IMG/VR virus record: IMGVR_UViG_3300045988_177049
Span: 45,537-109,536 of that record
Reading direction: 5' to 3' (one strand)
Origin: a virus
DNA: 64,000 nt
The notes under the pieces are model-generated. The model saw nothing but the letters and a program-made list of their open reading frames with translations, made no database searches and had not been told where the DNA came from. This document shows, piece after piece, positions 10,311 to 46,351 of the stretch (position 1 is its first letter; the number at the start of each line of letters is the position of its first letter). The position numbers and the translations under genes are program-made.

Positions 10311-10342
10311 ACACTTTAATCACGAAAGGCTAAGAACACATC

Positions 10343-11098: not shown

Positions 11099-11133
11099 GC
11101 GCATTTCTACTATTCATCGAAAGGATATTCACC

Positions 11134-11835: not shown

Positions 11836-11850
11836 CCGCACCTATCACAC

Positions 11851-11896
11851 AAAAACAATACCCCGAGCACGGTCATGTGCCCGGGGTATTGTTTTT
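11851..11896. terminator. bidirectional rho-independent terminator between convergent genes
   Basis: The 15-bp arms aaaaacaataccccg and cggggtattgttttt form a perfect inverted repeat. A-tracts and T-tracts lie on both sides, so it works on either strand. Confidence 0.6.
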
Positions 11897-11907
11897 GCCG
11901 TATGACT

Positions 11908-25036: not shown

Positions 25037-25092
25037 TTCCAACACCTTTCCTTTCATACATCAATGGATACTTTTACGTAAATAACAATCAA

Positions 25093-25581: not shown

Positions 25582-25699
25582 ATTTTGTCCTTTCGCATAG
25601 AGATTCTGCTCGTAACTCAGTCTAACACAATGATACGTATAACGCATCTATGTTACAATGGATAATATAAACCACTTCTAGTAGAAAGCCGCGCACACC

Positions 25700-27484
25700 A
25701 TGCCACGAAAACCTTCCCAAACCCTTGAACAATTCAGCTCCGCCCTGGCTGATCAGCTTGTTGATCAATCCCTACGATCCATTGCTCGTGGATCAGACAC
25801 AAGAGTCCAATGGCGCTGTCCCATTGACCCTCGCCATATATGGTGGGCAAGCCCAATGAACCGCACTAATGCGAAAAATCCAACCGGATGCAGCGTATGT
25901 AACGGCAAGACTGTCATCCCCGGTGTCAATGACGTCGCCACAACCCATCCCGACGTGGCTGCTCTCATGGTTGATCAAAGCCTCACCACGAAGCTCACCG
26001 GCTCTTCTAATAAGAGAGTCGAGTTCTGGTGTGGTAATCCCGCACACAACCACTGGGTTGCACCGCTCAGTAACGTCGCGCGCCAAGGAACGCGCTGCCC
26101 TCAGTGCTCAGGTCGTAAACCCGTTTCAGGCCAGAGCGATCTAGCGACCACTCATCCCGACCTAGTTTCCGAACTTGTTGATCAGTCTCTCGCTACCACC
26201 CTCAAAGCAGGGTCAAACACCTCTGTGCTCTGGCAATGCTCGGTGAATCCCGATCACACGTGGAAGGCAACGCCATACTCACGTACAACTAAAAAGACCG
26301 GGTGCCCGTATTGCTCAGGTAGGATCATCGTCCCTGGTGTCAATGATCTTGCAACCACACACCCCGATCTGGCTATACAGCTCGTGGATCAGTCCTTAGC
26401 GACAGCCACGAGCAAGGGTGGGACTACACCTGTGCTTTGGCAGTGCCAAGTCAACCCGGAGCACACATGGCTCGCAGCCCCAAGTAACCGTGTGAAGCCC
26501 TCGGGATGCCCCATGTGCTACAGGCTTCATACCAACCCATCTCAAACACTTTTAACCGAGATGATCCGCTCTCTTGTTCCCACGAGCACAGTCCTCGGTG
26601 ACGACCATACGATTCTCCCCTCGGGTAAAGAACTTGATATCGTCGTGCCTGACCACCGTCTCGCCATCGAGTTCAACGGTGTGTTCTGGCACTCTGAGGC
26701 CGCATCTGTCGAAACGCACTGCAAGCCCCATCCTCACGGCTATCACGCTGAGAAAACACGTGAAGCACGCGAGCAGGGCTACCAACTCGTTCACGTGTGG
26801 GAGGATGACTGGGTGCATCGACACGAGCTTGTTATGCGCGCTCTTGCTCATAAGCTACACGCGACAGACCGCCTGCCGGAGATTCTGCCAGACATCAACC
26901 CGCTGGCCTATGAGCGTCTCTACGCGCGCAGCCTCACAGTGAAAACTGTTCCTGGTGATGTTGCAAGACGTTTCTGGCAAGACAACCATCTCCAAGGCCC
27001 GGTGAACTGCTCTGTCAACATCGGTCTCTATGATCAAAACCATGTTTTACGCGCTCTGCTCGGTGTGGGGCGCAAGAACCATGGTTCACGTGTCTCGCTG
27101 CCAGATGGAACCTGGGATATCCAGCGCTACGCAACACTAGGCATTGTCGTTGGTGGCTTCACCCGTCTCCTTGCCCACGCTGAGACACTTCTGCCCGTCC
27201 ACGCGTGGACGTCATGGAGCGACAACGACATCTCTGATGGTGGGATGTACCAAGCAGCAGGCTTCACCCCGGATAAGCGTCAAGGAGCGAGCTACAGCTA
27301 CGTCGGACGCACAACCAGGTGGGAACGTGTTCATCGCTCCACGTACACGAAGCAGCGTTTCATTGACGATCCTGATCTCGTCTACGAGCCTGGTCAAACT
27401 GAGCACGAGGCGGCTTTAGCTAATAGGCTCTACCGCATCTACGACGCAGGTAAGACCCGGTGGATCAAACACGTGGAACGCTAG
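25700..27484 (+). CDS. protein with four tandem zinc-ribbon modules followed by a Vsr/DUF559-like PD-(D/E)xK endonuclease domain (homing-endonuclease-like)
   Basis: The unit WxCxxxPxHxWxAxxxxRxxxxxGCPxCxGxxxxxGxNDLATTHP is repeated four times. After it, ELDIVVPDHRLAIEFNGVFWHS is typical of Vsr-like restriction-endonuclease-fold nucleases. Confidence 0.55.
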   Translation: MPRKPSQTLEQFSSALADQLVDQSLRSIARGSDTRVQWRCPIDPRHIWWASPMNRTNAKNPTGCSVCNGKTVIPGVNDVATTHPDVAALMVDQSLTTKLTGSSNKRVEFWCGNPAHNHWVAPLSNVARQGTRCPQCSGRKPVSGQSDLATTHPDLVSELVDQSLATTLKAGSNTSVLWQCSVNPDHTWKATPYSRTTKKTGCPYCSGRIIVPGVNDLATTHPDLAIQLVDQSLATATSKGGTTPVLWQCQVNPEHTWLAAPSNRVKPSGCPMCYRLHTNPSQTLLTEMIRSLVPTSTVLGDDHTILPSGKELDIVVPDHRLAIEFNGVFWHSEAASVETHCKPHPHGYHAEKTREAREQGYQLVHVWEDDWVHRHELVMRALAHKLHATDRLPEILPDINPLAYERLYARSLTVKTVPGDVARRFWQDNHLQGPVNCSVNIGLYDQNHVLRALLGVGRKNHGSRVSLPDGTWDIQRYATLGIVVGGFTRLLAHAETLLPVHAWTSWSDNDISDGGMYQAAGFTPDKRQGASYSYVGRTTRWERVHRSTYTKQRFIDDPDLVYEPGQTEHEAALANRLYRIYDAGKTRWIKHVER

Positions 27485-27587: not shown

Positions 27588-30500
27588 TCACTCGTTCTCT
27601 CGGCGCTCATGGATACGAGCCATAGCTCGATCAAAAGCACCGTTACCGAGATCTTCCCACGATTCACAGCTGTTCAAGAACTTATAGAACGCGTCGTGAA
27701 CCTGCCACGAGCCAAGCTCAGCAGCATTCATGATCGACTCATCGTCACCATACACACCTTGGGTGGCATCAGACGATGCATCCTGGATCGCGCGCAGCTC
27801 AGAGCTTGACAAGCCCTGGCTGATGTACACCCGACCTTCAAGCGAGCACAGTGACCCGTTCGCGTCCACTCTAAAGAACCGGGCGTCTCCTGCAAGTTCA
27901 CGCTTGGTCTCACGGTACGCAGCGATGATCTCATCATCAAGACTATGGATCACACTTCCGTTGTCACCGATAAAATCAGCACGGCTGATCTGACCTTCGG
28001 CATACCGCTTCTTCTTCCGATCATCCATAATCTTCTGCTGCACGGCCATTTCTTGCTGAACGTCCTCATTGATCACGTCATCTTGACTAAAGACATCATA
28101 ACCCGCTCCCACGAAAGCACGATACGCGTCCTCACTCATCATGTCGTATTCTTCGGACTCATCACTTTGACCTTGGCGTTCTGCCTCAATGGATGCAATG
28201 AGATCCATGACCTCAGCCGAGTACACGTCTGGGTCCAAAATCGAGATGCCGTAATCATCCAGGTTATAAGCATCTTGGTACAGATTCATTGCCTCAGCAG
28301 CGTTTGCAGCCTGTTCAATACGCTTGTCCAGCATCTTGACAAAGTCAGGCTGGTTCAAGCGCACATCGAACTCAAGTGCAGACGAAAGGGTTGGAATCGT
28401 CTGGAGCGAATACGTGTGTCCTGGATGCTGAATCGTGTCTTTGAACAAACGCCACGACATCGGCAGGATCTCTGCATTGCGGTTCCAGATCGGTGAGATA
28501 CCAGCGGAGAAGATGATTGAATTACGCTCCGGCAAAAATGCCAAGTCATTGTACCCAATCACAGACTCTTCCTTCGCACTGATCGTGTACGAGACCTTGC
28601 CCTCAACATTCAAACCTTCGATGAGACGCTCGGTATCCTGAGTCACCGTCTTCGAGTCTCGCACCGCGCGGTGGCGCGTACCTGACATCTTCGCCAATGT
28701 CTCAATCATCGTATCGTCCGTCGATTTCAGAAACACAATATTGGCAACGTTTCCTTGGATGATCTTATCTACCGAGTCGCCATAGACGTCTCTAGCCTGC
28801 TGCAACGTTTGAAGAATCAACGTAAATTGCTGCTCCTGGCCCAAACCAATCGACAACATGGTTTCGAACCCGGCGATACCGTGGCCCTCAGACTGCAAGT
28901 TACCCAACTCGTCAAGCATGAAGCGCGTCTTGTACAACGGCTTCTGGCTCGACTTGGTCATGTAAGACTTATCAAAGTTCAAGTCCACCAATTGCTTCAC
29001 GAGGATCAGCACGAGTTTCGCGTACTTCATCAAGTGCGGTGGCGTCACCAGGAACACAGCCTTGGGTTGTTCCGAGTACCGCACCGACGACAAGATAATG
29101 GCAGGCACGCTCTCTCGCACCGTCTGAGGCTTCCCAGCCTTATCGAGAAGACGAGTCGTGGGGTAGTTCAGATGACCTGGAACAAGTTTTCCATCCGGCC
29201 CCTTCACCATCTCCACGAGAACACCATTACGGATGATCTTGCTTCCCGTCACAGGGTCTTTGACGAACTTACGACCATTCAGGGACAACTGGTACCCCTT
29301 CGTGAACTGAAAATAGAACGTCTTCAAGAGCACGCCGGTATGCGGATTAAACAAGCGCAGTCGCAAGTATGCGACATCGTGAGGGAACTTCCCATCGAAG
29401 TAGTAACGCGCCCAACCTTCTCGCACAACTGTGTCTTCGTGCTCAAAGTCTTTCCCGAGGTTGTGTGTCAACTCGGGATCATCAAAGGCATCCCACTTCG
29501 CCTGAGCACCAATGAGACCGTCTCGCTTAGTGAAGTTTTGTGCGAAACGGACACCGAAACGACGAGGGAACGACAACCCGCCCAAGTCAGTGTTCTGGGA
29601 GGGCGTACCAGAAGTCAGTGTCGAGATCGTCGGATCAGTAAAGAAGCTCATTGCGGTGATCGCAATACCGTAGACAGACGCAAGCATCTTCTCAGCTCCC
29701 GCCATTGCACGAAGCGCATTGTTGGCGTTGGCAATGAGCGTGCGCATCGTCGACTGAGGTAGAGCCTCGGTCGCGTTAAAGAACAAGGTGAGCAGGTCCA
29801 GCTCAGGCTTGTCTTCCCACAAGAACTCAATACGCTCGGCTTGTGCCTGGTCGTGATTGATCGCTTCCTGACGTTCGTCCTCGTCCTGAATCTGGTCGTA
29901 ATACCCACCCTTGAGACGCTCGTTCATCTGAGTCATGGGCGACTTGCGCTTCTTCGAGGTGAGCTGCACAAAAAGCTGGTAGCAGTTATAGAGCGTGACT
30001 TTACCCCACATGGCATCGAGCTTTTGTTCCAAAACCTTTTGATCCATGCCATGTCGCATCGCATACTGACGCAACTGGTGCTCTTCTTCCAGGTAGTAGT
30101 CGATCAAGCCGTATGCTGCACGCTTGAACGCGTTGTTTGCAGCGTTCGGCCACACCGGGTCTTCTGCACCATCGACTGGGAAGAACACGTCTGCGATGTT
30201 TTCAACGTAGAGAGCACACTTGGTCTGGTCACCTTCGCGTGCTGCCTCAGCAGCCATCCCAAGCGGATTGTAAATGTCCGTTTTCATGGCATTGATGAGG
30301 TTAAACTGCACAACCTGGAACCCGCGCATGGTGGCACGGACGTAATTTTTCACCAAAAGTTCGCCCTTGGGGTCATTGATGACCATGTTGTCCGGGCGCT
30401 TTTGGCGCATCCAGATATCGAGCATCGGTTCAATGTAGGTCTGACCTTTACCAGCACGAGTCATAGCAAGGATCATGGTGTTGGCAGGGGCTGTATCAAC

Positions 30501-31628
30501 GTAATACACACCAGCCGGGCGCTGAGGCTCATACGTAGGCAGCTCCCACTCCCCATTCACCAGATCGGCGAGCGTGGCAAAACCTTTGAGCTTATCTCGG
30601 CTCGCGTTCCCGGGGTTGTAAGGAACAGTGCTGGGGTCGAGACGCCGACGCAGTTTATCGTTGTCAGGCAGACCCGAGGCGTCCCACAAAGCCGTTCCAA
30701 AGGCTTCATCGAACATCGGAACCATGTCAGTGATCGGGGTTCCGTGTTCATCGGTGAGAACCTCGCCCTTGAACAAAGTCACGTCGTCATCTTCATCAAG
30801 AATGTCTGTCTCAGCACGCTTGGCAAACGCCACCGGCTTAATACCCTTATTCGCCACCATCGAGTGTGAAATGAGCGTTGTCGCACTGACCCCTGTGTGT
30901 GCTCCAACATCGGGAACAACGTCGAAACGCTCGCGCACCTCTTCGGGCAAGGCCACGTGCTGATCGTTCTTGTACTGGTTAATATCCGTGGTGTCACGCA
31001 TGAGGTTCTGAGCCTTAAGATTGCGCATCAAGACCAGACGCAGCGCCCCCCATGCTGCTCCACCAGCGAAGGCGGAGACGAAAAACTTGATCCAACCGAG
31101 TGAGAAGATCCACCCCAGAGCACTCCCAGGTTGATCAGCCATCTGAGCATCCCGCTCGGCCTTTTCTGCTGCCACAGCGTCCTTATGCCACTGTGGTTCA
31201 GGAACGTCCTTGGCTGACTCGTAACACGTCTCATCAGATGGGTCAGGCGACCCATCCTCTAGAGCCGGAGAATAACACACCTCGCTGATCACAGAACGGT
31301 GCAAAGCTTTGGTAAGATCCCTGTTCTCAACCGAATAGCTCGGTACAGACGAGTGCCACAGCGAGTCTTTCACCGCTGCAATGCCCATCGAACCAAACGA
31401 AATGATCACCCAGACGGAAATGAAAACAAGTATGCCGACCGCTGCTGAGGCGATCTCACGAGAGCGAGGAGAGAGCTTTGCTTCAATCTCACTACGCTCA
31501 AGCTGCTGATCCCCGTGAACATCCTGGTACGCCAAGGAGTCCAGCTCGTCTTGCTGACCGAGCTGTGCCCACGCTTGGCTCCCCTTTTCACGAGGGGCCT
31601 GCCCTCTGGCTTTTCGACGCCAACCCAT
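27588..31628 (-). CDS. type IV secretion coupling protein (VirD4/TraG family), unusually long at 1346 aa
   Basis: Two N-terminal TM helices. The Walker A-like AMTRAGKGQT matches VirD4 PTRSGKG, and VINDPKGEL matches the T4CP DPKGE motif. About 700 aa of extra C-terminal sequence follows. Confidence 0.7.
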   Translation of the reverse strand: MGWRRKARGQAPREKGSQAWAQLGQQDELDSLAYQDVHGDQQLERSEIEAKLSPRSREIASAAVGILVFISVWVIISFGSMGIAAVKDSLWHSSVPSYSVENRDLTKALHRSVISEVCYSPALEDGSPDPSDETCYESAKDVPEPQWHKDAVAAEKAERDAQMADQPGSALGWIFSLGWIKFFVSAFAGGAAWGALRLVLMRNLKAQNLMRDTTDINQYKNDQHVALPEEVRERFDVVPDVGAHTGVSATTLISHSMVANKGIKPVAFAKRAETDILDEDDDVTLFKGEVLTDEHGTPITDMVPMFDEAFGTALWDASGLPDNDKLRRRLDPSTVPYNPGNASRDKLKGFATLADLVNGEWELPTYEPQRPAGVYYVDTAPANTMILAMTRAGKGQTYIEPMLDIWMRQKRPDNMVINDPKGELLVKNYVRATMRGFQVVQFNLINAMKTDIYNPLGMAAEAAREGDQTKCALYVENIADVFFPVDGAEDPVWPNAANNAFKRAAYGLIDYYLEEEHQLRQYAMRHGMDQKVLEQKLDAMWGKVTLYNCYQLFVQLTSKKRKSPMTQMNERLKGGYYDQIQDEDERQEAINHDQAQAERIEFLWEDKPELDLLTLFFNATEALPQSTMRTLIANANNALRAMAGAEKMLASVYGIAITAMSFFTDPTISTLTSGTPSQNTDLGGLSFPRRFGVRFAQNFTKRDGLIGAQAKWDAFDDPELTHNLGKDFEHEDTVVREGWARYYFDGKFPHDVAYLRLRLFNPHTGVLLKTFYFQFTKGYQLSLNGRKFVKDPVTGSKIIRNGVLVEMVKGPDGKLVPGHLNYPTTRLLDKAGKPQTVRESVPAIILSSVRYSEQPKAVFLVTPPHLMKYAKLVLILVKQLVDLNFDKSYMTKSSQKPLYKTRFMLDELGNLQSEGHGIAGFETMLSIGLGQEQQFTLILQTLQQARDVYGDSVDKIIQGNVANIVFLKSTDDTMIETLAKMSGTRHRAVRDSKTVTQDTERLIEGLNVEGKVSYTISAKEESVIGYNDLAFLPERNSIIFSAGISPIWNRNAEILPMSWRLFKDTIQHPGHTYSLQTIPTLSSALEFDVRLNQPDFVKMLDKRIEQAANAAEAMNLYQDAYNLDDYGISILDPDVYSAEVMDLIASIEAERQGQSDESEEYDMMSEDAYRAFVGAGYDVFSQDDVINEDVQQEMAVQQKIMDDRKKKRYAEGQISRADFIGDNGSVIHSLDDEIIAAYRETKRELAGDARFFRVDANGSLCSLEGRVYISQGLSSSELRAIQDASSDATQGVYGDDESIMNAAELGSWQVHDAFYKFLNSCESWEDLGNGAFDRAMARIHERRENE

Positions 31629-31775: not shown

Positions 31776-34064
31776 TTAGACACCCAATGTACCACCACCA
31801 GCAGCATTATTCATCACCCATGACATCATCGAAGCAGCGTGTGCGCTCGAACCTGCCCCGCCATGAACGAGCATTCCAATGATCACGCCCAGTGCGAGGA
31901 ACGCCAGAGCGACCAAAACCGCCAGCGCGATGTAGAGTCGGTTGGCTCGCTTGGCGACAAGGTTCTCGCGATCCATCTGATCCATGAGCAGCTGCTTGTC
32001 GGTTTGCAACGACTCGACCTGGCTCTGGAACTGCCGTGCGATCTCATCACGAACAACGCCAACGCGCTCGGCTTCTTCCTTCACGCGCTCGTTCGCACGC
32101 TGAACCTCTGCGCGAGCCTGAGCGAGCTGTGCATCATTTTCCTGGCGCATACGCTCCAAGACCTTGTTCGCTTCGTCCTGAGCCGCTAGAACGCGCTTGT
32201 GGGCTTCATCGCGTTCACGTGCGATCTGCTCGTGCAGCTCCTGTTCACGAGCTGCAAATTCAGCGCTCTTTTCCTCAACGATGTTCTGACGCGAGAGCTG
32301 TTCCTGGAGAGCCTGGGTACGAGCAATGTCTTCCTTACGATTCTCATCAAGGAAGTCATTCATCTCGACGCGGAACTTCTCGATCAGTTCAGCTTCACGC
32401 TGCACCTGCTCAGCGCGCTTTTCAATGAGGTGATCCATCACCTTAGTGATGGCCGCATCGAACGCACCCTGTGCCGAGGTCTTGCGAGCACGCAAAATCT
32501 CATAGCGGCGTGCCTCGTAGTCGGATTCGATGTCCAAGCGAATCGATACTTCCAAGTCGTCCATCTGGCGAGTTAGAGCGGGCTTGTGACGCTCGTCGTA
32601 ACGCACGCGCTCTTCCCCGATTCGAGCCTGGATAAAGGCTTCACGTTCCTGCTGGTACCGATCGGCGAGTACAGCCTTCTCCTTCTCAGAAATCTCAATC
32701 AAATCGGCAAGAGCCTTTGTCTCATTACCATTGACCTCAGCCATGGTCTTGGCCCACGTGTTCTCGGCGTCTTCGTCAATGCTCATCTGAGACGAGATCT
32801 CATCTCCCGTACGTGAGACGAGCGAGAAGAACAGGTTACGCAGTTCCTCGATATCACGACGACGCTGGTCAGCAAGAACAGTGTTCGCCTGCTGAGAGAG
32901 CATCTTGATCTGACCATCAAGCCAGTTGGTGCTGTCCAGATGATCCAGAGAGAACTGAGCCGGGGTATCAACCTCGTAGCCCAGCAGGGTCTCGAAAGGC
33001 GTCATATCAACGGCGAAATCCAGGCTGTCATCAAGGAAGCGACGAGCAACGGCTGTGCGAACAGCGTCTTTATTAAAGACACGCTCGTCCACCGGAGCAA
33101 CCTCAGGTGCGACCTCTACCTCTTCGGTCTGAGTCGGTACATGCAGAGCAGGGGCGGGAGCCTCTTCGATGTCATCGAAGGGGTTCTCATCCTCATCGTC
33201 CTCGTCATACAGACCCTCATCCGAAGGCAGCTCATCAACCATCGATTCATCCGGGATGTCATCGGGGTCGAAGTGAGGCAGGTTTTCAACAGCCTCAACA
33301 GACTCACTCTGAGCAGCGGTAGGCGGAAGGGTCGGAGCAGCCGGTGCTGCTTCCTCATGCACCTCTTCGGGTGCCACTTCTTCTACAGCTTCCTCTTCAA
33401 CCCCGTCTCCACCGAGACGCTTCCACAGCGTCGGGATGAGCGATGCCAAGGTGATAGTACCCGCTGCAATCTCCTGAGCCTGAGCCAGGGTGACAGTATC
33501 GATGTCTCCATCAGGAACCTCAATGAGACCCGTTGCTTCATCGAAATGAACAGGAACGGTTTCAAGAGTTCCATCGGCGGCAGGGGTCACCGACGTGAGC
33601 AAGAACTTCGCACGGTCGAACAGGGTGTACTCCCCCATGCCATCAGGTCCAAGGGAAGCAGGGGTGGGGATCACGCCCAAAATATTGTGACGAAGCATGT
33701 CTTCGGTCGCACACACCTGGATCTTATCGTCAGCGATCCGCTGAAGGATCGACCCCTTGTCTTCATTGCCCTTGGACGAGACCTTACCGAGGCCCCCGAT
33801 ACCGCCGTCTTCGATCGAGGCGTCAACAGGGAGCGCAAGAATCACGCCAATACCGTTTGGCAGAAGCCATTCGGTGTTCTGGCGAATAATATCAAGGGCA
33901 GCGCCGGGTTCAGTCTCATCGATGACCAAAGTCAGCGAGTCCTTCGCAGCACGTGCATCAACGGCTGGTGCCTTCGTTTCGGTCTGAGCAGGAGCGGCTG
34001 CCTGAGCTTCTTCAATTGCGCCGCCGCCATCGGCAGCAGCCTTGTCTTTCTTGCCAAACAACAT
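31776..34064 (-). CDS. hypothetical coiled-coil protein with an acidic central region and a C-terminal TM anchor (762 aa)
   Basis: Long Glu/Arg/Ala-rich heptad-like segments. The C-terminal hydrophobic helix is LYIALAVLVALAFLALGVIIGMLV. It sits inside the conjugation operon. Confidence 0.45.
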   Translation of the reverse strand: MLFGKKDKAAADGGGAIEEAQAAAPAQTETKAPAVDARAAKDSLTLVIDETEPGAALDIIRQNTEWLLPNGIGVILALPVDASIEDGGIGGLGKVSSKGNEDKGSILQRIADDKIQVCATEDMLRHNILGVIPTPASLGPDGMGEYTLFDRAKFLLTSVTPAADGTLETVPVHFDEATGLIEVPDGDIDTVTLAQAQEIAAGTITLASLIPTLWKRLGGDGVEEEAVEEVAPEEVHEEAAPAAPTLPPTAAQSESVEAVENLPHFDPDDIPDESMVDELPSDEGLYDEDDEDENPFDDIEEAPAPALHVPTQTEEVEVAPEVAPVDERVFNKDAVRTAVARRFLDDSLDFAVDMTPFETLLGYEVDTPAQFSLDHLDSTNWLDGQIKMLSQQANTVLADQRRRDIEELRNLFFSLVSRTGDEISSQMSIDEDAENTWAKTMAEVNGNETKALADLIEISEKEKAVLADRYQQEREAFIQARIGEERVRYDERHKPALTRQMDDLEVSIRLDIESDYEARRYEILRARKTSAQGAFDAAITKVMDHLIEKRAEQVQREAELIEKFRVEMNDFLDENRKEDIARTQALQEQLSRQNIVEEKSAEFAAREQELHEQIARERDEAHKRVLAAQDEANKVLERMRQENDAQLAQARAEVQRANERVKEEAERVGVVRDEIARQFQSQVESLQTDKQLLMDQMDRENLVAKRANRLYIALAVLVALAFLALGVIIGMLVHGGAGSSAHAASMMSWVMNNAAGGGTLGV

Positions 34065-34216: not shown

Positions 34217-37200
34217 TTACGCGAGAACAGCATCATAAGGTTGGACCACAACACGCGCATCCGACTTCAAAATCGACACGTCTTCACTACGCAATGTGCC
34301 TTCAATTCTGACGGCAATATTACGTTCATGTGGATGTTCATTGATAAACGCGGCGATTTCCGTTGTCACAAATCGCTGCATCCGTCGCACCATGTCACGA
34401 GCACCACCAGAGTCCGAGTCGCTCCGCGCCTCATCTTCCACGAGAAACTCCAACACACGCCCATCGACGGTGACATGGATACCGTGCTTACGCTTGACGT
34501 CTGTGATCATTTCAGCGAGCTTCTTCGTCATGATCTTGCGCAGCGTGGCACGAGACAGAGGCTGGAACGGGACGATGGCATCGATACGACCCAAGAGTTC
34601 CGGTGGGAACTTTCCACCGTCTTCGCTCTTGATCGAGGTCTCGATGATCTTCTCGTAATCTCGCATCGTCTCTTCGCTCCCGTGGTCATCGGCGTTGTAT
34701 TCACCAATGGTGCGATAGATCTCAGAGCCAGCGTTCGTGGTCAACACGATGTACGTGTTCAGGAACGAGACCTGGCGACCATCTTTATCGGACAGACGAC
34801 CGTCATCGAGCACCTGAAGCAGCAGGCGCACAACGAGCGGTGACGCCTTCTCGATCTCATCGAAAAGCAGCACGCAGTGGCTCGTTGCCCACACGTGACG
34901 AGCGAGGTCTTCACGGAAGAGATCAACGCTGTCATCCCTGCCCCATTCCGACATGTCGAAACGCACAAGGTGGCGCTGATCGTCGCCAAACAGGATCTTT
35001 GCAAGCTGCTTCGTGACCTCAGTGTTGTGCGTAACGATGAAGTCACCTGCTTGGTACAGGTGCTCGTCATCGGCAACGTAAATACACGAAGAGGACTCTC
35101 GATACGGAAGTTTCTCGATCTTGGTGATACCGACCATATCGAACTTCTTGACACGTTGACGACCCTTGGTTGCGACCTTTGCTTCCTCAGCAATGGCACG
35201 CTTACGCTCCAACCAAAAGAAACGAGTCTTATCGTCATTGCTGGACTTGACGTAAATCGTATACTCCGTTGACACACGACCATCATCATCGGTGCGCATA
35301 TACGTATTCATAGTGTTAGACACACCGAGCGAAAACAGCAGTTCGCGTACATCCTCAGCCAGGCCCTGAGAAGATGTCGAATAACTGACATCATAACGAT
35401 CCTTAACGATGCTACCGTCAGTATCGAAAAGCCCGCGCACTAGCTCCCAACGTTGTCCAACGGATGCCGCCATATACTGTTGTGGGATACGACGCTCAGT
35501 AGAATATACACCGATTAACTCAGGAACCTTAGCAAAGATATCTTTCGTCTGAACGAGACTATCCCTATGCCCAAATTTCTCACCAGTTTTAAATAGCCAG
35601 CAATAATGTGCGTTATCTTCCTTAAACTCAAAACCGATGGTCTCACTGATACGACGTACAACATCAATATCATCAGAAGATAGCCTCAGTGGCTTTCTCG
35701 TCAAACACCCATTTCCGATAAACACCCCAACCACATAAGGATCTACCGGCAAATGAGCATCAGGCCACTGCACAGCCTCATTCATCGGGATGAAAAACTT
35801 CATGCGTTTCGCCCCACTCTTTGGATGAATGTTCAATACACCCGACTCCAACATATCCATCGTTGTCATCACACGAGGCTGAACATCGAGGCCCCCACGC
35901 TTACGCTCCCGCATAGACCGAGTGTACACACTCCATAAATGCGGCCCACCAACATCAAGGTGTCGACCATCCCACGTGTGAACACGATAAATGTCCTGCT
36001 TCCCTTGAGGGAACACAGCGAGAACCTCTTCCGGTGAGCCATCGCGTTTAAACACACGATCACCAGGAACGAGATCACCGTGACGTTTCCACGCCACAGA
36101 ACCATCCTCAGAAAAGACTGGTACACGAGTAGAGTCTGTACACAGCTTGCCCACGCCTGAGCTGCCCGTCAGCAACAGCGATGCCATAGGTTTACTCGGG
36201 TCATTCAACCCGGCCACACACAGCTGCAAACGCCGTGCAATCGACGTCGTGGCAAAGTCTTGGCTAAAGACGCGCTTGTCCAGCTCGGCTTTAATCGCCG
36301 TAGCATCGACGTTAATCTCGACTTCGACACCGAACTCGACTTTCAACACTGTTGCGAGCAGTTTCTTATCCATCGGCTCACCGAGGTACCTGTGGCGACC
36401 CACCATGGCATCGAGCACACGGATCGACTTACGCGGCTGTACGGAGGCAGGCACGTAGCGGTTCGTGTAGTCAAAGATCTGCTCGTAGAGCGACTCGCTG
36501 ATCATGCCCTGATCGACGCCATACTTTTGCGCCATGGCCTTGAGAATCTCGATAGTCACCCTTCGATTCGTCTGAGGGATGTTGATACGCGCAAGGCGTT
36601 CAACCAAAGGCAGGTTCGAGGCAATATGAGCATCGAACTCGTCATAGGTCGTTGCCGCAATAACCTTGATCCCACGCGATCCAGAAGCCGCGAGCAAAGG
36701 CTTGAGCGCTTCCACAGCAGCAGCGGAGAGCTGAACCACCTGGTGAAACTCGTCGATGAACAGCACGACTTCCCGGCCCTCGGCCTTAGAAAAAGCCTCG
36801 GCTTCGTCGAACAGAGCCTTGAGGCGTGCAGCCATTTCCTCGGGGTTCGACAGGTCAGAGATCATCTTCGCCATGTCAACTTCGAGGTAAATACGAGCCG
36901 GATCATCTTCCATGCACGACTGTACGAGCACAGTGTTGTGCGTGACGATGTGACCCCGACCCACCTGGTACAGGTGAGTGTCCGAGTCCACCATGATGCA
37001 CGTCATCTCTGTTTCACGGTTATTGTCAATAACCTCAGCGATCAAGCCACCGATTCGACCCAGAGAACACTCCAGCTCGTGCATGTCGATATCGACCTTC
37101 CAGATGAAAGGCGAGGACACATCTCGATACGACTCACTTTCTCGCAAGGCTCGTACCATCTCTTGACGATCATGAACGCTACTCGTCATGTACAGACGCG

Positions 37201-37990
37201 GGATGCGACGCTGTTCCTCATCCTTCACGATCAAACCTGTAAATGCTGGATGCGTCATCACCTGTGGGCCTTCGACGCGCTTACCTGTCCCCTCGTGGAT
37301 AAAAATCGATCGGGAACTCTCGCGCTGTCGCTTCCATCCCATGTGCTCTTCGATCGCTGCAAAAACCTCATCGGGAGCCTCATTCGGCATACTGACGTAC
37401 CCACGCTCGTCAATGCGTACACCCCAGCCGAGAAACGCTCCGCACACATAAGGATCAACCGGGAGCAAACGGCTCTGTCGCACCAGTGCTCCAGATGCAG
37501 GCAGCTCCCATACCAAAGACCTGTCCTGGGGATCCACCAAGCCCTGGTCCATAATCTCTCGCAGCGACAATGTCTGCCACTCGTGAGTTCCACAGCGACG
37601 CACAGTCCACAGGTGCTCATCGTTGCAGCGTACTCGATCCCCTCGATTCGTGACCATCTCATATTCGCGCCGCATCCCCTGTGGGAACACGCCTGTGACA
37701 GTGACAGGGTCTCCGTGTTCATCAAAGACGCGATCCCCCACCTTGAGCATCCCAATACGCACGTACCCACGTTCGTCTGCAACCGGAATCAACTCATCGT
37801 TTGGATGAGCCTTGCCGGTGCCTGGCGGGGCAAGCAGAATCGCGTTACACATCTCGGGGCGAGCCAGAGCACTCATCAATGAGACCTTCTCCTTTTCACG
37901 GCCCACAACTTCACGCGCGGGTTTGCCCAGACGAGACGCAAAATCTCGCAGCATGGGATAAGCCTCATTCAGACGATCATTGTCGAACAC
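34217..37990 (-). CDS. Clp/Hsp100-like double-AAA+ ATPase interrupted by two inteins (precursor 1257 aa, extein ~592 aa)
   Basis: The N-extein ILLAPPGTGK is followed by A...IVTHN (292 aa), then TVLVQSCMED, which restores GTGK-T. The second P-loop GSSGVGKL is followed by CTDS...FIVTHN (373 aa), then TEVTKQLAKILFG. Both inserts end in HN followed by Thr and carry LAGLIDADG-like blocks, PVDPYVCGAFLGWG and PVDPYVVGVFIGNGCL plus WELVRGLFDTDGSI. The extein is paralogous to ORF 1428..3269. Confidence 0.75.
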   Translation of the reverse strand: MFDNDRLNEAYPMLRDFASRLGKPAREVVGREKEKVSLMSALARPEMCNAILLAPPGTGKAHPNDELIPVADERGYVRIGMLKVGDRVFDEHGDPVTVTGVFPQGMRREYEMVTNRGDRVRCNDEHLWTVRRCGTHEWQTLSLREIMDQGLVDPQDRSLVWELPASGALVRQSRLLPVDPYVCGAFLGWGVRIDERGYVSMPNEAPDEVFAAIEEHMGWKRQRESSRSIFIHEGTGKRVEGPQVMTHPAFTGLIVKDEEQRRIPRLYMTSSVHDRQEMVRALRESESYRDVSSPFIWKVDIDMHELECSLGRIGGLIAEVIDNNRETEMTCIMVDSDTHLYQVGRGHIVTHNTVLVQSCMEDDPARIYLEVDMAKMISDLSNPEEMAARLKALFDEAEAFSKAEGREVVLFIDEFHQVVQLSAAAVEALKPLLAASGSRGIKVIAATTYDEFDAHIASNLPLVERLARINIPQTNRRVTIEILKAMAQKYGVDQGMISESLYEQIFDYTNRYVPASVQPRKSIRVLDAMVGRHRYLGEPMDKKLLATVLKVEFGVEVEINVDATAIKAELDKRVFSQDFATTSIARRLQLCVAGLNDPSKPMASLLLTGSSGVGKLCTDSTRVPVFSEDGSVAWKRHGDLVPGDRVFKRDGSPEEVLAVFPQGKQDIYRVHTWDGRHLDVGGPHLWSVYTRSMRERKRGGLDVQPRVMTTMDMLESGVLNIHPKSGAKRMKFFIPMNEAVQWPDAHLPVDPYVVGVFIGNGCLTRKPLRLSSDDIDVVRRISETIGFEFKEDNAHYCWLFKTGEKFGHRDSLVQTKDIFAKVPELIGVYSTERRIPQQYMAASVGQRWELVRGLFDTDGSIVKDRYDVSYSTSSQGLAEDVRELLFSLGVSNTMNTYMRTDDDGRVSTEYTIYVKSSNDDKTRFFWLERKRAIAEEAKVATKGRQRVKKFDMVGITKIEKLPYRESSSCIYVADDEHLYQAGDFIVTHNTEVTKQLAKILFGDDQRHLVRFDMSEWGRDDSVDLFREDLARHVWATSHCVLLFDEIEKASPLVVRLLLQVLDDGRLSDKDGRQVSFLNTYIVLTTNAGSEIYRTIGEYNADDHGSEETMRDYEKIIETSIKSEDGGKFPPELLGRIDAIVPFQPLSRATLRKIMTKKLAEMITDVKRKHGIHVTVDGRVLEFLVEDEARSDSDSGGARDMVRRMQRFVTTEIAAFINEHPHERNIAVRIEGTLRSEDVSILKSDARVVVQPYDAVLA
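35024..36142 (-). mobile_element. intein 2 (373 aa) inserted at the NBD2 P-loop; Cys1 ... HN/T; contains a LAGLIDADG homing endonuclease domain
   Basis: It spans residues 617..989. Block A is CTDSTRVPVF...GDRVF. The LAGLIDADG blocks are DPYVVGVFIGNGCL and LVRGLFDTDGSI. It ends DFIVTHN followed by T. Confidence 0.6.
36935..37810 (-). mobile_element. intein 1 (292 aa) inserted between the Lys and Thr of the NBD1 Walker A GKT; Ala1, ...THN/T junction
   Basis: It spans residues 61..352 of the precursor. The first residue is Ala, which is non-nucleophilic. Trp (EHLW), Cys (EMTCIM) and the penultimate-block Thr (VTHN) are retained, a class-3-like WCT pattern. It also has a degenerate LAGLIDADG region. 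Confidence 0.55.
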
Positions 37991-38117: not shown

Positions 38118-38669
38118 TCAGAACTCCGGTTCGTCGTTCTCGATCTCAGCAACCTCTTCAACCTGCGCCTCGGCGCTAACCTCGGCTTCTGCGTCCTTCT
38201 GAGCAGCCTTGCGAGCTTCATTAGCTTCCTTAGCTGCCTTCGAAGCTGCACGCAGCTCATCGAAGATCTTATCGTCGATCGCCAACTCCGAAGGCTCAAG
38301 AGTCTTCGTGTTGATGACAAGACCAGTCTGCTTACCAGATGCAGGCATCACGTCTGCCTTCACCGCGTAAACGCGAGGTCCCGGATGACCGTCACGCTCA
38401 GGCATCTGAACGAAGTTATCGCCAGCCGCAGCAACAATAGCATCTCGCTGAGACACACTGTAACCGGCCTGGTGATCATACACCGTTCGACCATCCAATT
38501 CACGCTTCTTCGACACCAGGTGAGGAACTTGCTGGGGTGCAACACCCTCAACAGGACGCACCTGTGCATCCAGGAAGAAACGATCGCCAGCCTTTGAGTG
38601 TGCGTTGGGGTATTCGACAACCACCAGCTCGACACCACTCATTGAACCCTTACCACGTAGAATAGCCAT
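38118..38669 (-). CDS. hypothetical protein with a Lys/Ala/Glu-rich acidic tail ending ...ENDEPEF
   Basis: ORF of 183 aa directly downstream of the relaxase gene on the same strand. The C-terminal EPEF is shared with ORF 41205..42308. Confidence 0.45.
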   Translation of the reverse strand: MAILRGKGSMSGVELVVVEYPNAHSKAGDRFFLDAQVRPVEGVAPQQVPHLVSKKRELDGRTVYDHQAGYSVSQRDAIVAAAGDNFVQMPERDGHPGPRVYAVKADVMPASGKQTGLVINTKTLEPSELAIDDKIFDELRAASKAAKEANEARKAAQKDAEAEVSAEAQVEEVAEIENDEPEF

Positions 38670-38804: not shown

Positions 38805-41129
38805 TCAACCAAGTTCAATATCGTCGGATGCATCCATGATGTCATTCTCAGGCGTGTCCAGAACAGCCTCAATCTGAGGCACCAAGTCTGCCGTCTCGCG
38901 CCATGTGCTTATCCGAACGATGCCAGCCAGACCCTCGTCAAAACTGACTGTTGCACTCCGGCGCACCCCCTTTTTCATCGGAACCACATCGCTGAGCGCG
39001 CTTGTGAGAACCAGATCGCCACTCTTGTGGCTCATCTGCTTCTCCAGATCATCAGCCACCTTATTCATCCGGCGCACATCACCCAGGGGCAACACGGCGT
39101 CAACGATGGTGCTCTGGCCTGATTGCTCCAAATAGGTTCGAGCCTCATCAACCAGACGTTGCCGCCTTCGTGCCCACTGAACGAAGCCCTGGGCCGTGTG
39201 GCGTCCCAGGGCCATATCCACCACCGTGTCCGACCTAACGTCGTGAAGATCCATACCCTTGGTTTCAGACAATGTCCAGCGTTCCCCTTGCACCACAGTG
39301 AGGGCGTTCTCGCCACCTGCTGTCTGATCCTTTTGATCCGAGTCCTCATCGCCCACAGCCTTGATGACAAGACCTTGACCCGACAGGGTGGACACAAGAT
39401 CGTTCATACGGGTTTTGAGCGTCTCACGCGCCTTCTCTAGGCGGCGGCGCAAAGTCTGACGCCCCGCTGAGCCACCGGCCACCAGCAAACGTCCACCGCT
39501 CACGCCATGAGAGACCACCCCTAAGCGCTCGGCTTCATTCGCATCCTTCATCTTCGGGATGGAACGGTCCCCCAGCAACCCCTCTAGGCCAAAAACACCC
39601 GTGCGTGCCTGATCGACAGCATACAACGCCTCTTTCCACGTCTCATCGCTACTCTCACCATCAACGCCTGTAGCCAGCGGCCCCAGCAGCGAGCGATATT
39701 TACTCACGCACCGGGCATGATACTCTTCCTCTTCGAGATAGAGCCTATGCATCGGCTCAGAGGTTGACGAGACGACCCCTGCTTGGAAACCAGACTCCCA
39801 TTCTGAGGCACGCTGACGCCACATCTCACGTTGAGCGTTATGTTCCCGCATCCTTGTTCCATACGAGCGTAGTCGCAATGAGAAGCCCACAAGATCATCC
39901 TCGGCGCTCACGCCCCCAGCTCGGGTCTTGATCTGCTGAGCGTGAGTAGCCATCAGGGTCTCCACGTCTTGGCTCATCACGTCCAGAGTCGGCGTACGTA
40001 CATGTGTCATCTCTGGCGGCAACGAGGCAAGAACTTGGTACAAACCGTTAACACCTCGCTCCATAATGGTCTGATACCCACGCTGAACCAATGCCTTGCG
40101 CGCCTGCTCACTCAAACCTTCTCGCTGTGCCCTACGGCCAGCGTAGGTCTCGACAGCGAGCATGGCAGAAGCCATCGGTGAGCCTTCTTGTTCAAGCAGC
40201 TCACTCACCAGCTCTGTGGCAACGCTATTGGCACGTCGCATCTCGCTCCGGTTTGATCCGTAACGCCACAAAGTCTTGTCAGCAGGCAGGCACGCGAGCA
40301 GCAGCTGTGGAAGCGACTCTTCGAGCACCTTCTTATGCGCCCATCGCTTAACAAACGCTGCGACATTAAGTCGTTCATACCCCACAGCGCTCGACATATG
40401 AGCCACGTGCTGGTTCTCGTCTAACCACGAGTCCACCCCTCGGCGGAGCACAGAGATGTCGGTGCTCGTCAGTTTACCTTTCTGCTGGACGCCTTTCCCG
40501 GTGCGCACTCTCCGACCGCGCCCGGCATCAACCATTGCGAGATGGCAGTGAACATGCAGGGTATCCACCTGGATCACGCCCACGTAGCGCAGGTCATCGA
40601 AACGATGCCCCATACGCTCCAGTCCATGCATAATCGCCATGCGCAGGCGCATCTGGTCGATATGGCCTCGGTAATCGCCTTTGTTCTGTGCCACGAAACC
40701 CTTGGGAACCACACCCATCTCTTGCAGATACTCAGGGCTAAAAGACAACACAGTTTTCATGACTGTGTGACCTTCATCGAACAGACGTTGAATGTCAGCG
40801 CTGGCTCGGCGTACACCTTCATCAGAGAGCGAGGGTTGGCCGTAGCCAAAGGCAACGCCGCCCAGCCCAGAGACATGGAGCACGCTCTCTTTAACCTCGT
40901 AGCGCGAATGAGCCTTCTCCGTTGCGCTCTCACGGGCCATGTAACGAAGAATAAAGTCTTCCGTATCGCGCTTGCGGATCGGCGTGACAGGTTCGGTTGC
41001 CCCTTTGCGAGCCATATAGCGCATGACGTAGGTACCGGGGGTACCACCACGTGATCCACCTTTGCCAGACCCTGGGGTGGGCACGCTGAACTCGTTGACG
41101 ACAACGATGCTGCTCTTAAGGCTCACCAT
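38805..41129 (-). CDS. MobP-type (RP4 TraI-like) conjugative relaxase with a large C-terminal extension
   Basis: The three-histidine motif VIQVDTLHVHCHLAMVD matches relaxase motif III HxDxxxLHxHxxxN of RP4 TraI. RBS gaaagg precedes the start. It is embedded among T4SS genes. Confidence 0.6.
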   Translation of the reverse strand: MVSLKSSIVVVNEFSVPTPGSGKGGSRGGTPGTYVMRYMARKGATEPVTPIRKRDTEDFILRYMARESATEKAHSRYEVKESVLHVSGLGGVAFGYGQPSLSDEGVRRASADIQRLFDEGHTVMKTVLSFSPEYLQEMGVVPKGFVAQNKGDYRGHIDQMRLRMAIMHGLERMGHRFDDLRYVGVIQVDTLHVHCHLAMVDAGRGRRVRTGKGVQQKGKLTSTDISVLRRGVDSWLDENQHVAHMSSAVGYERLNVAAFVKRWAHKKVLEESLPQLLLACLPADKTLWRYGSNRSEMRRANSVATELVSELLEQEGSPMASAMLAVETYAGRRAQREGLSEQARKALVQRGYQTIMERGVNGLYQVLASLPPEMTHVRTPTLDVMSQDVETLMATHAQQIKTRAGGVSAEDDLVGFSLRLRSYGTRMREHNAQREMWRQRASEWESGFQAGVVSSTSEPMHRLYLEEEEYHARCVSKYRSLLGPLATGVDGESSDETWKEALYAVDQARTGVFGLEGLLGDRSIPKMKDANEAERLGVVSHGVSGGRLLVAGGSAGRQTLRRRLEKARETLKTRMNDLVSTLSGQGLVIKAVGDEDSDQKDQTAGGENALTVVQGERWTLSETKGMDLHDVRSDTVVDMALGRHTAQGFVQWARRRQRLVDEARTYLEQSGQSTIVDAVLPLGDVRRMNKVADDLEKQMSHKSGDLVLTSALSDVVPMKKGVRRSATVSFDEGLAGIVRISTWRETADLVPQIEAVLDTPENDIMDASDDIELG

Positions 41130-44455: not shown

Positions 44456-46351
44456 TCACGGTCCAGGGGTCAGGCGCGTACCCTTATCCCCCTGCCCCTT
44501 CTGCATAGAGGACGGGACAGTAACAGACGTGAACTTCGAAGACTGCTCCTTCGTCACGTTACGGAACGCCAAGTAATCCGTATCGAGACCCGTTGAACCA
44601 GTGTAGAACTGACCAACTGTTGGCGAACGGTCGTTGAGCGAACCAGAAACAATCTCGCCATGAGACTCGTAGTTTCCTTCGCCCCAAACTTCCTTCACCG
44701 AGTCTTCACCCACGTACATGACTGTGTGCGAAACGCCGCCAGTTGTGCGCAAAAGGATATCTCCCGGTTGCAGCTTGGACTTGTCACCGTTGTAATCAAC
44801 CGGCTTCCACTTCGAACTGCCTTCACCTTGGAGATAGGCGAGCTGGTTCGATACACCACCAGCGGGATAGCTATCGTCTGTTCCAGACCAGCGCACAGCG
44901 GTTGCAACCGTACGGTCACATGAAGCAAAGAAATGATCCGACTCACCAAGTACTTCCTTATGAAGATACTTGTACAGATCGGTGCCGTCGTTGCCCTTAC
45001 CCTCATCGTTGTACGGCCATGCGTAGGACAGCGCAGCCTTGACCAGCGACGAGTTATCAACGTGTCCAGCAAAAGACTTACACTGACTTGCCGCCTGAGC
45101 AACAGAAGCGTTGTTCGCTCCTGTCACTGCACTACCTGACTGAGCAAGAATCGAGTCAGCGAGCGACTGATTCTTCGACCAGCCACCCATCTTGGCAAAC
45201 CACGTGCCAGCAGCAGCTTCACGGGTTGGCAGCGTTCCATCATTGATGCCTTCCCACTTCGTAAGGAAGTACGAGGTTGCAGCAGACACGCTTCCACCCT
45301 CAGAGTTATTGATGAGAGCCTTCACCTGACCCACACGGGTTGGATCATCCTTGGAGACCATGAAACCAAGCTGAGTTTCCAGCGTGTACCACGGCTTATT
45401 GATCGACTTTGCATACTCGGTGAGCAGCGTGTTACGGCCATTCGTCCACTGTCCAAGGCCAATACCCATGAGGTCAATCGCAGGGAAACGAGCAGCGTAA
45501 GCCGGATCAACCTGAGCCATCTTAAAGTTCTTAAGTTGAGCATCCGTTTTGCGCGGCCCAATCGTGAACTTCTCGTCAAAGATTGTTTCAACGCTCGTTG
45601 GATCGATACCTGACTCATGCGACCAGTTGCCAAGGATGCCAGCGATATTCTCATTCGACATTCCCCATGCCGAGAGCACGGAGTAAATCGTCTTGGCGTT
45701 TTCTTCTGTTTGAGCCGAGAAATCGCCCTGAGCGCCCTCAGATGCTTTCACAGCGTTGTTCACTTCAACAGTGCATGAGGGGAGCAATCCATCGCGAGAG
45801 GCGGTGTCGCCATCGCGCATCGCAAGAGCACCACCAACCACGCCGACAGCTCCAACCGCTAGAGCCGCAAACGAAGCAACGCCCGCTGTTGCAGCTGAAA
45901 CCATGCCACCCATCGCACTTGAAATTGAAGTACCAAGACCAGCAAAGAACCCGACGACCGACTTACCAGCAGCGACGAGAGCGCCTGCTGCCATAGACCA
46001 CAGTGACTGAGCAGCAGCAACGGCTGTCATCATCACAGTTTTCAGCCAGTTAAGAAACGTCGCTAGAGCAGCAGCTTGCGCAGCAACCGGAGCAGCAGCA
46101 CCAGCGGCCATACCTGCCGCAGCCTTGCCGCCCTTACCCGCGCCAGGAACGCCACCGATACCAGAGGGCGCTCCACCAGGAGCCGCGCCACCCGATCCCA
46201 TCACATCGGTACCATTAGCGCCTGTATCAACCTTTTCAGGCACATCACTTTGAGATGCGGAACGATCAGGCTTGTCAATCGTCTCAGGGGTAGAAGCGTC
46301 GCCCTTCAATGGGTCTAGCCCACCAGCTACGCCTTTACTCACTGTCATCAC
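44456..46351 (-). CDS. CwlT-like bifunctional cell-wall hydrolase: lysozyme-like muramidase domain plus C-terminal NlpC/P60 or CHAP peptidase
   Basis: N-terminal Gly/Ala-rich TM region. ENIAGILGNWSHESGIDP resembles the phage-tail-lysozyme or CwlT N-domain. The C-terminus has a Cys...His papain-like NlpC/P60 arrangement in ...FFASCD...GDILLRTTGGVSHTVMYVG. Confidence 0.6.
   Translation of the reverse strand: MMTVSKGVAGGLDPLKGDASTPETIDKPDRSASQSDVPEKVDTGANGTDVMGSGGAAPGGAPSGIGGVPGAGKGGKAAAGMAAGAAAPVAAQAAALATFLNWLKTVMMTAVAAAQSLWSMAAGALVAAGKSVVGFFAGLGTSISSAMGGMVSAATAGVASFAALAVGAVGVVGGALAMRDGDTASRDGLLPSCTVEVNNAVKASEGAQGDFSAQTEENAKTIYSVLSAWGMSNENIAGILGNWSHESGIDPTSVETIFDEKFTIGPRKTDAQLKNFKMAQVDPAYAARFPAIDLMGIGLGQWTNGRNTLLTEYAKSINKPWYTLETQLGFMVSKDDPTRVGQVKALINNSEGGSVSAATSYFLTKWEGINDGTLPTREAAAGTWFAKMGGWSKNQSLADSILAQSGSAVTGANNASVAQAASQCKSFAGHVDNSSLVKAALSYAWPYNDEGKGNDGTDLYKYLHKEVLGESDHFFASCDRTVATAVRWSGTDDSYPAGGVSNQLAYLQGEGSSKWKPVDYNGDKSKLQPGDILLRTTGGVSHTVMYVGEDSVKEVWGEGNYESHGEIVSGSLNDRSPTVGQFYTGSTGLDTDYLAFRNVTKEQSSKFTSVTVPSSMQKGQGDKGTRLTPGP

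Follow-up and report, generated by a model that had tools for sequence, protein, structure and literature searches.

The 64,000-nucleotide stretch of DNA analysed here, hereafter the window, comprises positions 45,537 to 109,536 of IMG/VR virus record IMGVR_UViG_3300045988_177049, an element of about 109 kb from a human oral metagenome that measures 109.5 kb in independent assemblies. All coordinates are those of the window. Its minus strand carries an open reading frame (ORF) with GTG as start codon and GGAG 8 bases upstream, which very probably encodes a plasmid-borne, Clp-like double AAA+ ATPase with a class 3 intein splitting each Walker A motif between Lys and Thr. The gene is laid out as follows, with a slash marking insertion points and splice junctions throughout the text:

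34217..37990, minus strand: precursor ORF, 1257 amino acids (aa) plus stop, 142.4 kDa, in the order N-extein, intein 1, middle extein, intein 2, C-extein

37811..37990, minus strand: N-extein, aa 1-60, with the D1 Walker A at its end (...APPGTGK60)

36935..37810, minus strand: intein 1 (site a), aa 61-352, 292 aa, 33.5 kDa, putative class 3 type, with Ala61 (residue 1), His126 (B:10), Leu, Trp128 (B:12), Cys331 (F:4) and Thr350-His351-Asn352 (G:5-7), then Thr353

36998..37000, minus strand: Cys331 codon; this Cys, at F:4, is the nucleophile predicted to initiate splicing of intein 1

36146..36934, minus strand: middle extein, aa 353-615, opening with Thr353 (+1, which completes GTGK-T), containing the D1 Walker B LFIDEFH and closing with ...GSSGVGK615 (D2 Walker A)

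35024..36145, minus strand: intein 2 (site b), aa 616-989, 374 aa, 42.8 kDa, putative class 3 type with a LAGLIDADG domain, with Leu616 (residue 1), His684-Leu-Trp686, Cys969 (F:4) and Thr987-His988-Asn989, then Thr990

35084..35086, minus strand: Cys969 codon; this Cys, at F:4, is the nucleophile predicted to initiate splicing of intein 2

34217..35023, minus strand: C-extein, aa 990-1257 plus stop, opening with Thr990 (+1, which completes GVGK-T) and containing the D2 Walker B LLFDEIEKA and ClpB_D2-small

A preliminary description of this DNA had read the ORF as a Clp/Hsp100-like ATPase with inserts at its two P-loops, which is borne out by Pfam matches to AAA (aa 369-455), AAA_2 (aa 989-1139) and ClpB_D2-small (aa 1145-1227). 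The LAGLIDADG endonuclease domain proposed for intein 2 is likewise recovered, as Pfam LAGLIDADG_3 at aa 850-913. The NCBIfam models for ClpA, ClpB and ClpV match the precursor in pieces only, at ~200 bits versus cut-offs near 1000, and several 'intein-containing' NCBIfam models match aa 750-990.

Class 3 inteins have a non-nucleophilic residue 1, a Trp(B:12)/Cys(F:4)/Thr(G:5) triplet (WCT) and Thr or Ser at +1, and usually reside in a P-loop (PMC2807308, PMC5050341), of which the 'classic' insertion point lies between the invariant Lys and Thr (PMC5050341). Their mechanism and their bias toward P-loops have been described (PMC2807308, PMC7664689). The WCT triplet is present in both inserts, as W128, C331 and T350 in intein 1 and as W686, C969 and T987 in intein 2. 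Residue 1 is non-nucleophilic in both (Ala61 and Leu616), and both C-junctions read IVTHN/T, with Thr at +1 and the penultimate His-Asn. For intein 1 this agrees entirely with the preliminary description, which had it start with Ala, retain the Trp, Cys and Thr of class-3-like inteins and lie as 292 aa between GTGK and T, with exact coordinates.

A Hedgehog/intein (HINT) splicing domain with blocks A, B, F and G was identified by profile and phmmer matches and by the fold of the intein 1 model; for intein 2 the assignment is based on 30% identity to intein 1 and on the 'intein-containing' NCBIfam models. The AlphaFold2 model of intein 1 has a predicted local distance difference test (pLDDT) of 91.5 and a predicted template modelling score (pTM) of 0.87. 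When it was compared with the PDB by means of Foldseek, 50/50 of the best matches listed were inteins or related HINT domains. PI-SceI and VMA inteins cover its full length and class 3 mini-inteins the HINT part, PI-SceI being the best full-length structural match (TMq 0.59-0.69). A profile of site-a inteins, compared with solved inteins, gave E-values of 2.6e-16 for gp41-1_WCT, 1e-12 for PI-SceI and ~1e-10 for the class 3 inteins MchDnaB1 (6rix) and MsmDnaBi1 (6bs8). The WCT positions align with W65 and C107 of gp41-1_WCT; the structure 6riz is this engineered WCT form of gp41-1, and the class 3 triad of MchDnaB1 is Cys124-His65-Thr143, plus Trp67 (PMC7664689).

A HMMER search with the spliced extein against 1.84 billion representatives yielded 5219 matches below 1e-30. 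The 120 closest homologues (90%-identity clusters, among the matches listed) are 77-100% identical and 1190-1278 aa long. H-x-W, the block F Cys and (V/I)VTHN/T are kept in essentially all of them and form invariant columns in the site-a alignment, with Cys at the F:4 position of intein 1 in 120/120. Mean identity to the reference is 85% for intein 1, 62% for intein 2 and about 97% for the exteins. By these motifs, both inserts are class 3 inteins at the classic Lys/Thr P-loop site.

Intein 2 had been described as 373 aa at 35024..36142 with Cys as its first residue. The 3' end at 35024 is exact, but the start is Leu616 (nt 36145), which makes 374 aa. The former boundary corresponds to an ordinary class 1 intein with Cys617 as its residue 1, leaving a mature protein with Leu after GK and a non-canonical, possibly inactive second P-loop. 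Such a reading can draw on the Cys that is present at 617 in the window and on a readable C...HN/T frame, but many close homologues have Thr or Val at the position of Cys617, their site b starting with AT, QV, ST or GT. Across the 120 closest homologues the second GxGK is followed by any of C, A, Q, R, L, S, G and D, and then by C, T or V, hence Cys617 is not conserved; the (V/I)VTHN/T C-junction is invariant in the same set. An allele with an empty site b points in the same direction. P0121, a natural allele of 894 aa with 99% identical exteins, contains intein 1 and an empty site b, the protein sequence of which is LLLTGSSGVGK/TEITKQLAKILFGDD (GVGK/TEITKQ). The DNA of this allele, in the relative L005, reads GGCGTGGGCAAG/ACTGAG... 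across the intein-less site b. The window gene aligns with it over 1..1845 and 2964..3774, and the insertion, gene nt 1846..2967, consists of exactly 374 codons from CTG (Leu616) to AAC (Asn989), the Leu codon included. Moreover, every intein-free homologue (56 aligned) has GKT at the second P-loop, ClpC aligns as GVGKTE, and intein 2 has the WCT triplet. Since the homologues, the P0121 protein, the L005 DNA and the ClpC alignment all agree, intein 2 starts at Leu616 and the second P-loop, which the preliminary description had considered non-canonical, would read canonical GVGKT in the spliced product, as it does in the empty-site allele and in the homologues. The class 1 start at Cys617 was rejected on homologue variability, the P0121 empty site and the L005 insertion length, and we give it next to no credence.

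For the chemistry of splicing the class 3 paradigm serves as the model. Residue 1 (Ala61 or Leu616) is not a nucleophile; the peptide bond of Lys(-1) would be attacked by the Cys of block F (Cys331 or Cys969), which the His and Trp of block B activate. The N-extein would then be handed to Thr+1 (Thr353 or Thr990), after which the terminal Asn (Asn352 or Asn989) would cyclise and an O-to-N acyl shift would join Lys to Thr, restoring GTGK-T and GVGK-T. The predicted products are a 591-aa, 66-kDa ATPase and free inteins of 33.5 and 42.8 kDa. Neither ATP site would be intact until both inteins are excised.

The spliced extein is one residue shorter than the ~592 aa first estimated. It aligns collinearly with ClpC through both joins (E 1e-55), the alignment running through '...appgtgktvlv...' and '...gssgvgktevtkqlakilfgdd...'. 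That removal of the inserts should leave a continuous AAA+ fold had been set beforehand as a refuting check, and the fold is restored: the AlphaFold2 model of the 591-aa product has a pLDDT of 93.2 and a pTM of 0.88, is confident at both joins and finds its best PDB matches in ClpC, ClpC1, ClpB and ClpA protomers, at a template modelling score (TM) of about 0.8. Tandem AAA+ modules with intact Walker A/B and D2-small are obtained solely once both inteins are removed. In the 56 intein-free homologues G57, G59, K60, D121, E122, G322, K323 and T324 are invariant.

With the Hsp100/Clp class I proteins (ClpC, ClpB, ClpA) the window ATPase has two AAA+ modules, Walker A/B and D2-small in common, besides the protomer fold, whereas their N and M domains, pore-loop motifs and ClpP loop are lacking. 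The 591-aa core begins ~25 residues ahead of D1, and neither an N nor an M domain is present in the spliced protein. The D1 pore-loop Tyr is missing family-wide; in the spliced protein KYRGEFE has become SNPEEMA, with no aromatic residue. The D2 GYVG ('GAPPGYVG' segment) is deleted here and family-wide, a conserved Phe359 remaining, and the ClpP-docking (L/I)GF loop is absent from the spliced protein. The NCBIfam score for ClpA is 204 bits, against a cut-off of 993. In N and M domains, pore loops and family cut-off alike the spliced protein thus falls short of a Clp equivalog, and it is outside every named Clp family. ClpI of Actinomycetota was considered as family and rejected, since ClpI has N and M domains (PMC10149685).

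Selection was studied by pairwise Nei-Gojobori comparison of the window gene with L005 and two further relatives (L001, L002). The ratio of nonsynonymous to synonymous substitution rates (dN/dS) is 0.02-0.06 for the exteins and 0.11-0.25 across the segments of the inteins, among them the degenerate middle domain of intein 1. The host protein is under strong constraint, which, as its P-loops are split, implies that the inteins must splice. In a rival reading the inserts are dead relics, the precursor stays unspliced, the gene is non-functional and its role is covered by another Clp-like gene, which the element has:

1428..3269, plus strand: intein-free double-AAA+ Clp-like protein, 613 aa, with Walker A GVGKT and GVGKS and the D2 GYVG pore loop kept

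Degenerate endonuclease motifs, discussed below, also fit that reading. The 1428..3269 protein, which the preliminary description had matched to the extein as its intein-free paralog, is indeed a double-AAA+ protein without inteins, but it is only 24% identical to the spliced extein (E 1e-23) and its gene lies in a different neighbourhood. The low extein dN/dS, the intact Walker A halves and Walker B motifs, the essentially invariant splicing residues across the 120 homologues and an ORF that is open in every relative examined all argue against dead relics, which makes them very improbable here.

Intein occupancy was counted in the best 150 of the family's 50%-identity representatives:

no large insert: 70/150

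both inteins: 32/150

site b only: 29/150

site a only: 17/150

insert at another position: 2/150

All four occupancy states are therefore found in the extein family. The arrangement had been called unusual, whereas intein occupancy is common in this protein family (78/150, with both inteins in all 120 closest clusters listed). All site-a and site-b inteins of the family look class 3, with a block F Cys and (V/P)THN/T. Residue 1 is mostly Ala at site a and one of 12 types at site b; across the family it is A/L/G/S/M/Q/D/F/P/N/R/C. In some lineages site a is occupied by a second intein type, LLPL...GKCIQVD...FVPTHN.

Inteins 1 and 2 are homologous (blastp, 30% identity, E 3e-20), as had been proposed, but the blocks said to be near-identical match at 10/14 positions. 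With 30% identity their divergence is ancient. The nearest relative is a site-a intein for 49/49 site-a inteins and a site-b intein for 57/60 site-b inteins, cross-site nearest neighbours being rare (2/60 site-b inteins are closest to site-a inteins). The suggestion that one of the pair arose by ectopic homing into the other P-loop is not supported as a recent event, and a recent duplication was rejected on the 30% identity and the site-specific lineages. Judged from these relationships, the inteins of both sites belong to old lineages that seldom leave their site; jumps between sites occur in the family, yet a recent jump does not account for this pair. We regard the inteins as selfish elements of a widespread P-loop class 3 family. 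Related class 3 inteins (CNDEHLWT ... IVTHN/T, residue 1 Ala) are found in Walker A of Bacillota helicases:

L003 (metagenome-assembled genome of Ezakiella), 9329..11971: DnaB-like helicase with a related class 3 intein

L004 (Waltera intestinalis), 3579..5738: RecD-like helicase with a related class 3 intein

A tblastn screen of the window with 111 family inteins identified no further related inteins.

In the two closer comparisons, L001 and L005, synonymous divergence (dS) within both inteins is 0.86-1.04 versus 0.33 in the exteins, about threefold. DNA identity falls abruptly where the inteins begin and end, the surrounding 20 kb being uniformly about 91-93% identical. Most simply, this excess would reflect plasmid lineages swapping divergent alleles of the inteins.

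The bipartite architecture of a HINT and a LAGLIDADG domain is common to the window inteins and PI-SceI or VMA-type inteins, and PI-SceI matches intein 2 in sequence as well. PI-SceI is a class 1 intein (Cys1) with two catalytic Asp, whereas intein 2 has Asn760 at the first of these and intein 1 lost both motifs. In the phmmer alignment Asn760 falls on catalytic Asp218 and Asp858 on Asp326, so intein 2 has GNG as motif 1, Asn replacing the catalytic Asp, and DTDG as motif 2, where Asp858 is kept. The LAGLIDADG-derived central domain of intein 1 is degenerate, with GWG and, as motif 2, RESESY. Neither intein has two LAGLIDADG motifs that each end in a catalytic Asp/Glu, as an active enzyme would. 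The endonuclease of intein 1 is predicted to be dead and that of intein 2 to be at best a nickase. In the 120 close homologues motif 1 of intein 2 is (G/A)NG wherever retained and is deleted in about 13; deletions within the intein 2 endonuclease region were found in 15. GDG plus DTDG, with both Asp, is kept by about 10/109 inteins of the wider family; the underlying regex survey of LAGLIDADG motifs missed many inteins, hence positive counts alone were used.

Loss or half-loss of the endonuclease catalytic residues, the presence of both inteins in all 120 closest clusters listed and purifying selection over whole inteins, including the degenerate middle domain of intein 1, would also be expected if the inteins had been domesticated as switches, by which the donor cell's redox or metal state gates maturation of the conjugation ATPase and thereby plasmid transfer, given that both ATP sites depend on splicing and that a Cys thiol is the initiating nucleophile. 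A precedent exists in DnaBi1, a class 3 P-loop intein that is reversibly blocked by oxidation, through its catalytic Cys, and by zinc (PMC6195587, PMC7360933). Any intein whose failure to splice would inactivate the host protein is, however, expected to be under purifying selection. There are also an allele lacking intein 2 and many orthologues free of inteins, and the synonymous divergence of the inteins, ~3x that of the backbone, suggests that selfish alleles were exchanged and not that they were fixed for a function. We consider domestication unlikely. By analogy with DnaBi1 one may picture a double thiol lock, in which both ATP sites mature only with the block F cysteines reduced and metal-free, such that transfer in oral Actinomycetota is tied to the state of the donor; this too seems doubtful. 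If true, the at least 12 residue types at position 1 of site b would tune the splicing rate between plasmid lineages.

As selfish class 3 inteins the inserts resemble the P-loop inteins of mycobacteriophage Bethlehem DnaB, M. smegmatis DnaB (DnaBi1, 6bs8), M. chimaera DnaB-1 (6rix) and mycobacteriophage TerL1-a. These have the same WCT, non-nucleophilic residue 1, Thr+1 and His-Asn, as well as the insertion point between Walker A Lys and Thr/Ser and the HINT fold, with profile and fold matches in common. They reside in a helicase or terminase, whereas the host in the window is a plasmid Clp-like tandem AAA+ ATPase, and unlike them the window protein has a class 3 intein in each of two Walker A motifs of one polypeptide. 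Also unlike those systems, residue 1 at site b of the ATPase family can be any of at least 12 amino acids. P-loop class 3 inteins and multi-intein proteins are already established; M. smegmatis DnaB combines a class 3 P-loop intein with a second intein in one protein (PMC6195587). What is new is the host family, the presence of a class 3 intein at each Walker A of a single tandem AAA+ polypeptide and the plasmid/conjugation setting. We found no report of inteins in Clp/AAA+ chaperone-type or conjugation ATPases in a literature search of incomplete coverage, so that a prior description is possible.

The P-loop class 3 inteins gain one host family and two insertion sites, one in each Walker A motif (D1, D2) of a tandem AAA+ ATPase, and conjugative plasmids are vehicles that could carry inteins between phage, plasmid and chromosome ATPases. 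A large family with four occupancy states forms a natural series for intein gain and loss and for tolerance of residue 1 in class 3 inteins, which could also show whether splicing limits conjugation. The analysis furthermore flags an uncharacterised, conserved Clp-like ATPase of MobL systems that public records call 'AAA family ATPase', with the inteins unmarked.

The ATPase gene adjoins conjugation genes, in agreement with the preliminary description; a MobL relaxase and a type IV secretion system coupling protein flank it:

38805..41129, minus strand: MobL-family relaxase, 774 aa, upstream of the ATPase in the same orientation, a conserved neighbour

38118..38669, minus strand: 183-aa ORF between relaxase and ATPase, function not assigned

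31776..34064, minus strand: 762-aa ORF between ATPase and coupling protein

27588..31628, minus strand: type IV coupling protein, VirD4/TraG-like, 1346 aa

The order MobL, small ORF, ATPase, large ORF and VirD4-like coupling protein is the same or very similar in L005 and in L006, where the ortholog is intein-free. An ORF of similar size is found at the position of the 183-aa ORF in the Streptomyces and S. aureus plasmids described below and in L005, L010 and L011. The 762-aa ORF has no family match; its N-terminal half is acidic and of low complexity and it has a hydrophobic C-terminal stretch, as read from the sequence, and relatives have an ORF of 660-870 aa at this position.

The module occurs on Actinomycetota and Staphylococcus plasmids, where Gram-positive mobL-linked 'AAA family ATPase' genes have orthologous exteins, 32-58% identical to the window extein. 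In the plasmid of Streptomyces sp. NBC_01454 (NZ_CP109461) mobL, a small ORF, the ATPase, a ~700-aa ORF and the coupling protein follow in order. Its 1431-aa ortholog WP_329142712.1 (L007, 7522..11817) has two class 3 inteins, the one at site a of the second type (GSGK/LLPLGT...GKCIQVD...FVPTHN/T) and the one at site b beginning with Phe. It comes from a cultured isolate, is annotated 'AAA family ATPase' and provides a ready experimental system. In Gordonia pGKT2 the ortholog (WP_238553847.1) is intein-free; a ~700-aa ORF and the coupling protein come after the ATPase, and several ORFs separate mobL from it. On the S. aureus plasmid (NZ_CP150776) the order is mobL, small ORF and intein-free ATPase (WP_269909093.1), the record ending ahead of the downstream genes. 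In none of these three records are inteins or a function annotated. Since gene order is kept across phyla, the ATPase is taken to be a conserved accessory of MobL-type conjugation modules.

Several points weigh against the reading of the gene as a conjugation ATPase that matures through class 3 splicing. We infer splicing of the precursor from its motifs, and WCT by itself is no guarantee of activity because a class 1 intein onto which it was grafted did not splice efficiently (PMC7664689). About 20 close homologues begin intein 2 with Cys and could follow a class 1 splicing route. With the pore-loop Tyr of D1 and the GYVG of D2 both missing from the family, a threading mechanism is doubtful. 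Finally, we infer the role in conjugation from position (synteny) alone. 'Unfoldase' is thus an unproven label for the spliced ATPase, and the earlier idea that it unfolds a translocated RNA polymerase is speculative; most likely the mature protein forms a hexamer that uses ATP for remodelling in the relaxosome or in substrate processing.

As to the element itself, two contigs from GTDB species-representative genomes that carry close relatives of the gene (87% and 71% identity) were binned to an uncultured Actinomyces, a weak hint at the host. Megablast of window 30000-42000 against plasmid and phage collections gave no match. A phage identity was rejected, despite the public label 'DNA packaging protein [Herellevi...]', since PHROGs matched 1/10 neighbouring proteins, namely a lysozyme-domain protein. 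A 631-aa protein with Phage_lysozyme2 (E 3.6e-32) is encoded at 44456..46351 on the minus strand, upstream of the relaxase module, and is kept in L005 and L006; it is probably a cell-wall hydrolase of the transfer apparatus and not a phage gene.

An 1817-aa ORF (17132..22585, minus strand) has weak, above-threshold Pfam matches to RNA_pol_Rpb2_6 (aa 950-976) and RNA_pol_Rpb1_2 (aa 1328-1382) and looks like a single-polypeptide beta/beta'-like RNA polymerase. The gene also comes after the conjugation module in L005, and a large unannotated gene is found there on the Streptomyces plasmid. A variable spot (window 25092..27484) holds a 594-aa ORF with four DUF4379 treble-clef zinc-finger repeats; at this spot L005 has a 214-aa DUF4379 ORF and DNA identity falls to 82%.

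A UvrD-like helicase gene (4060..8282, plus strand) is split in motif III by an insert of ~1.06 kb at 5965..7046, the junction reading ...SLFIVG / (G)DASQTLYEFRSANP, where the upstream exon ends with T and the insert with G. The insert contains a LAGLIDADG ORF (6344..7045; Pfam LAGLIDADG_3, E 5.7e-7), and Rfam Intron_gpI matches 5965..6339 at 47.1 bits, below the gathering score of 50, with an E-value of 1.3e-10 in a local search. The insert is probably a group I intron that encodes a homing endonuclease, and would be the third self-splicing element in the window. The helicase gene is followed by a 265-aa ORF (8298..9095, plus strand) with a PemK/MazF toxin domain (E 3.7e-18), and two tRNA genes (63517..63600 and 63927..63999, plus strand) lie at the right end of the window.

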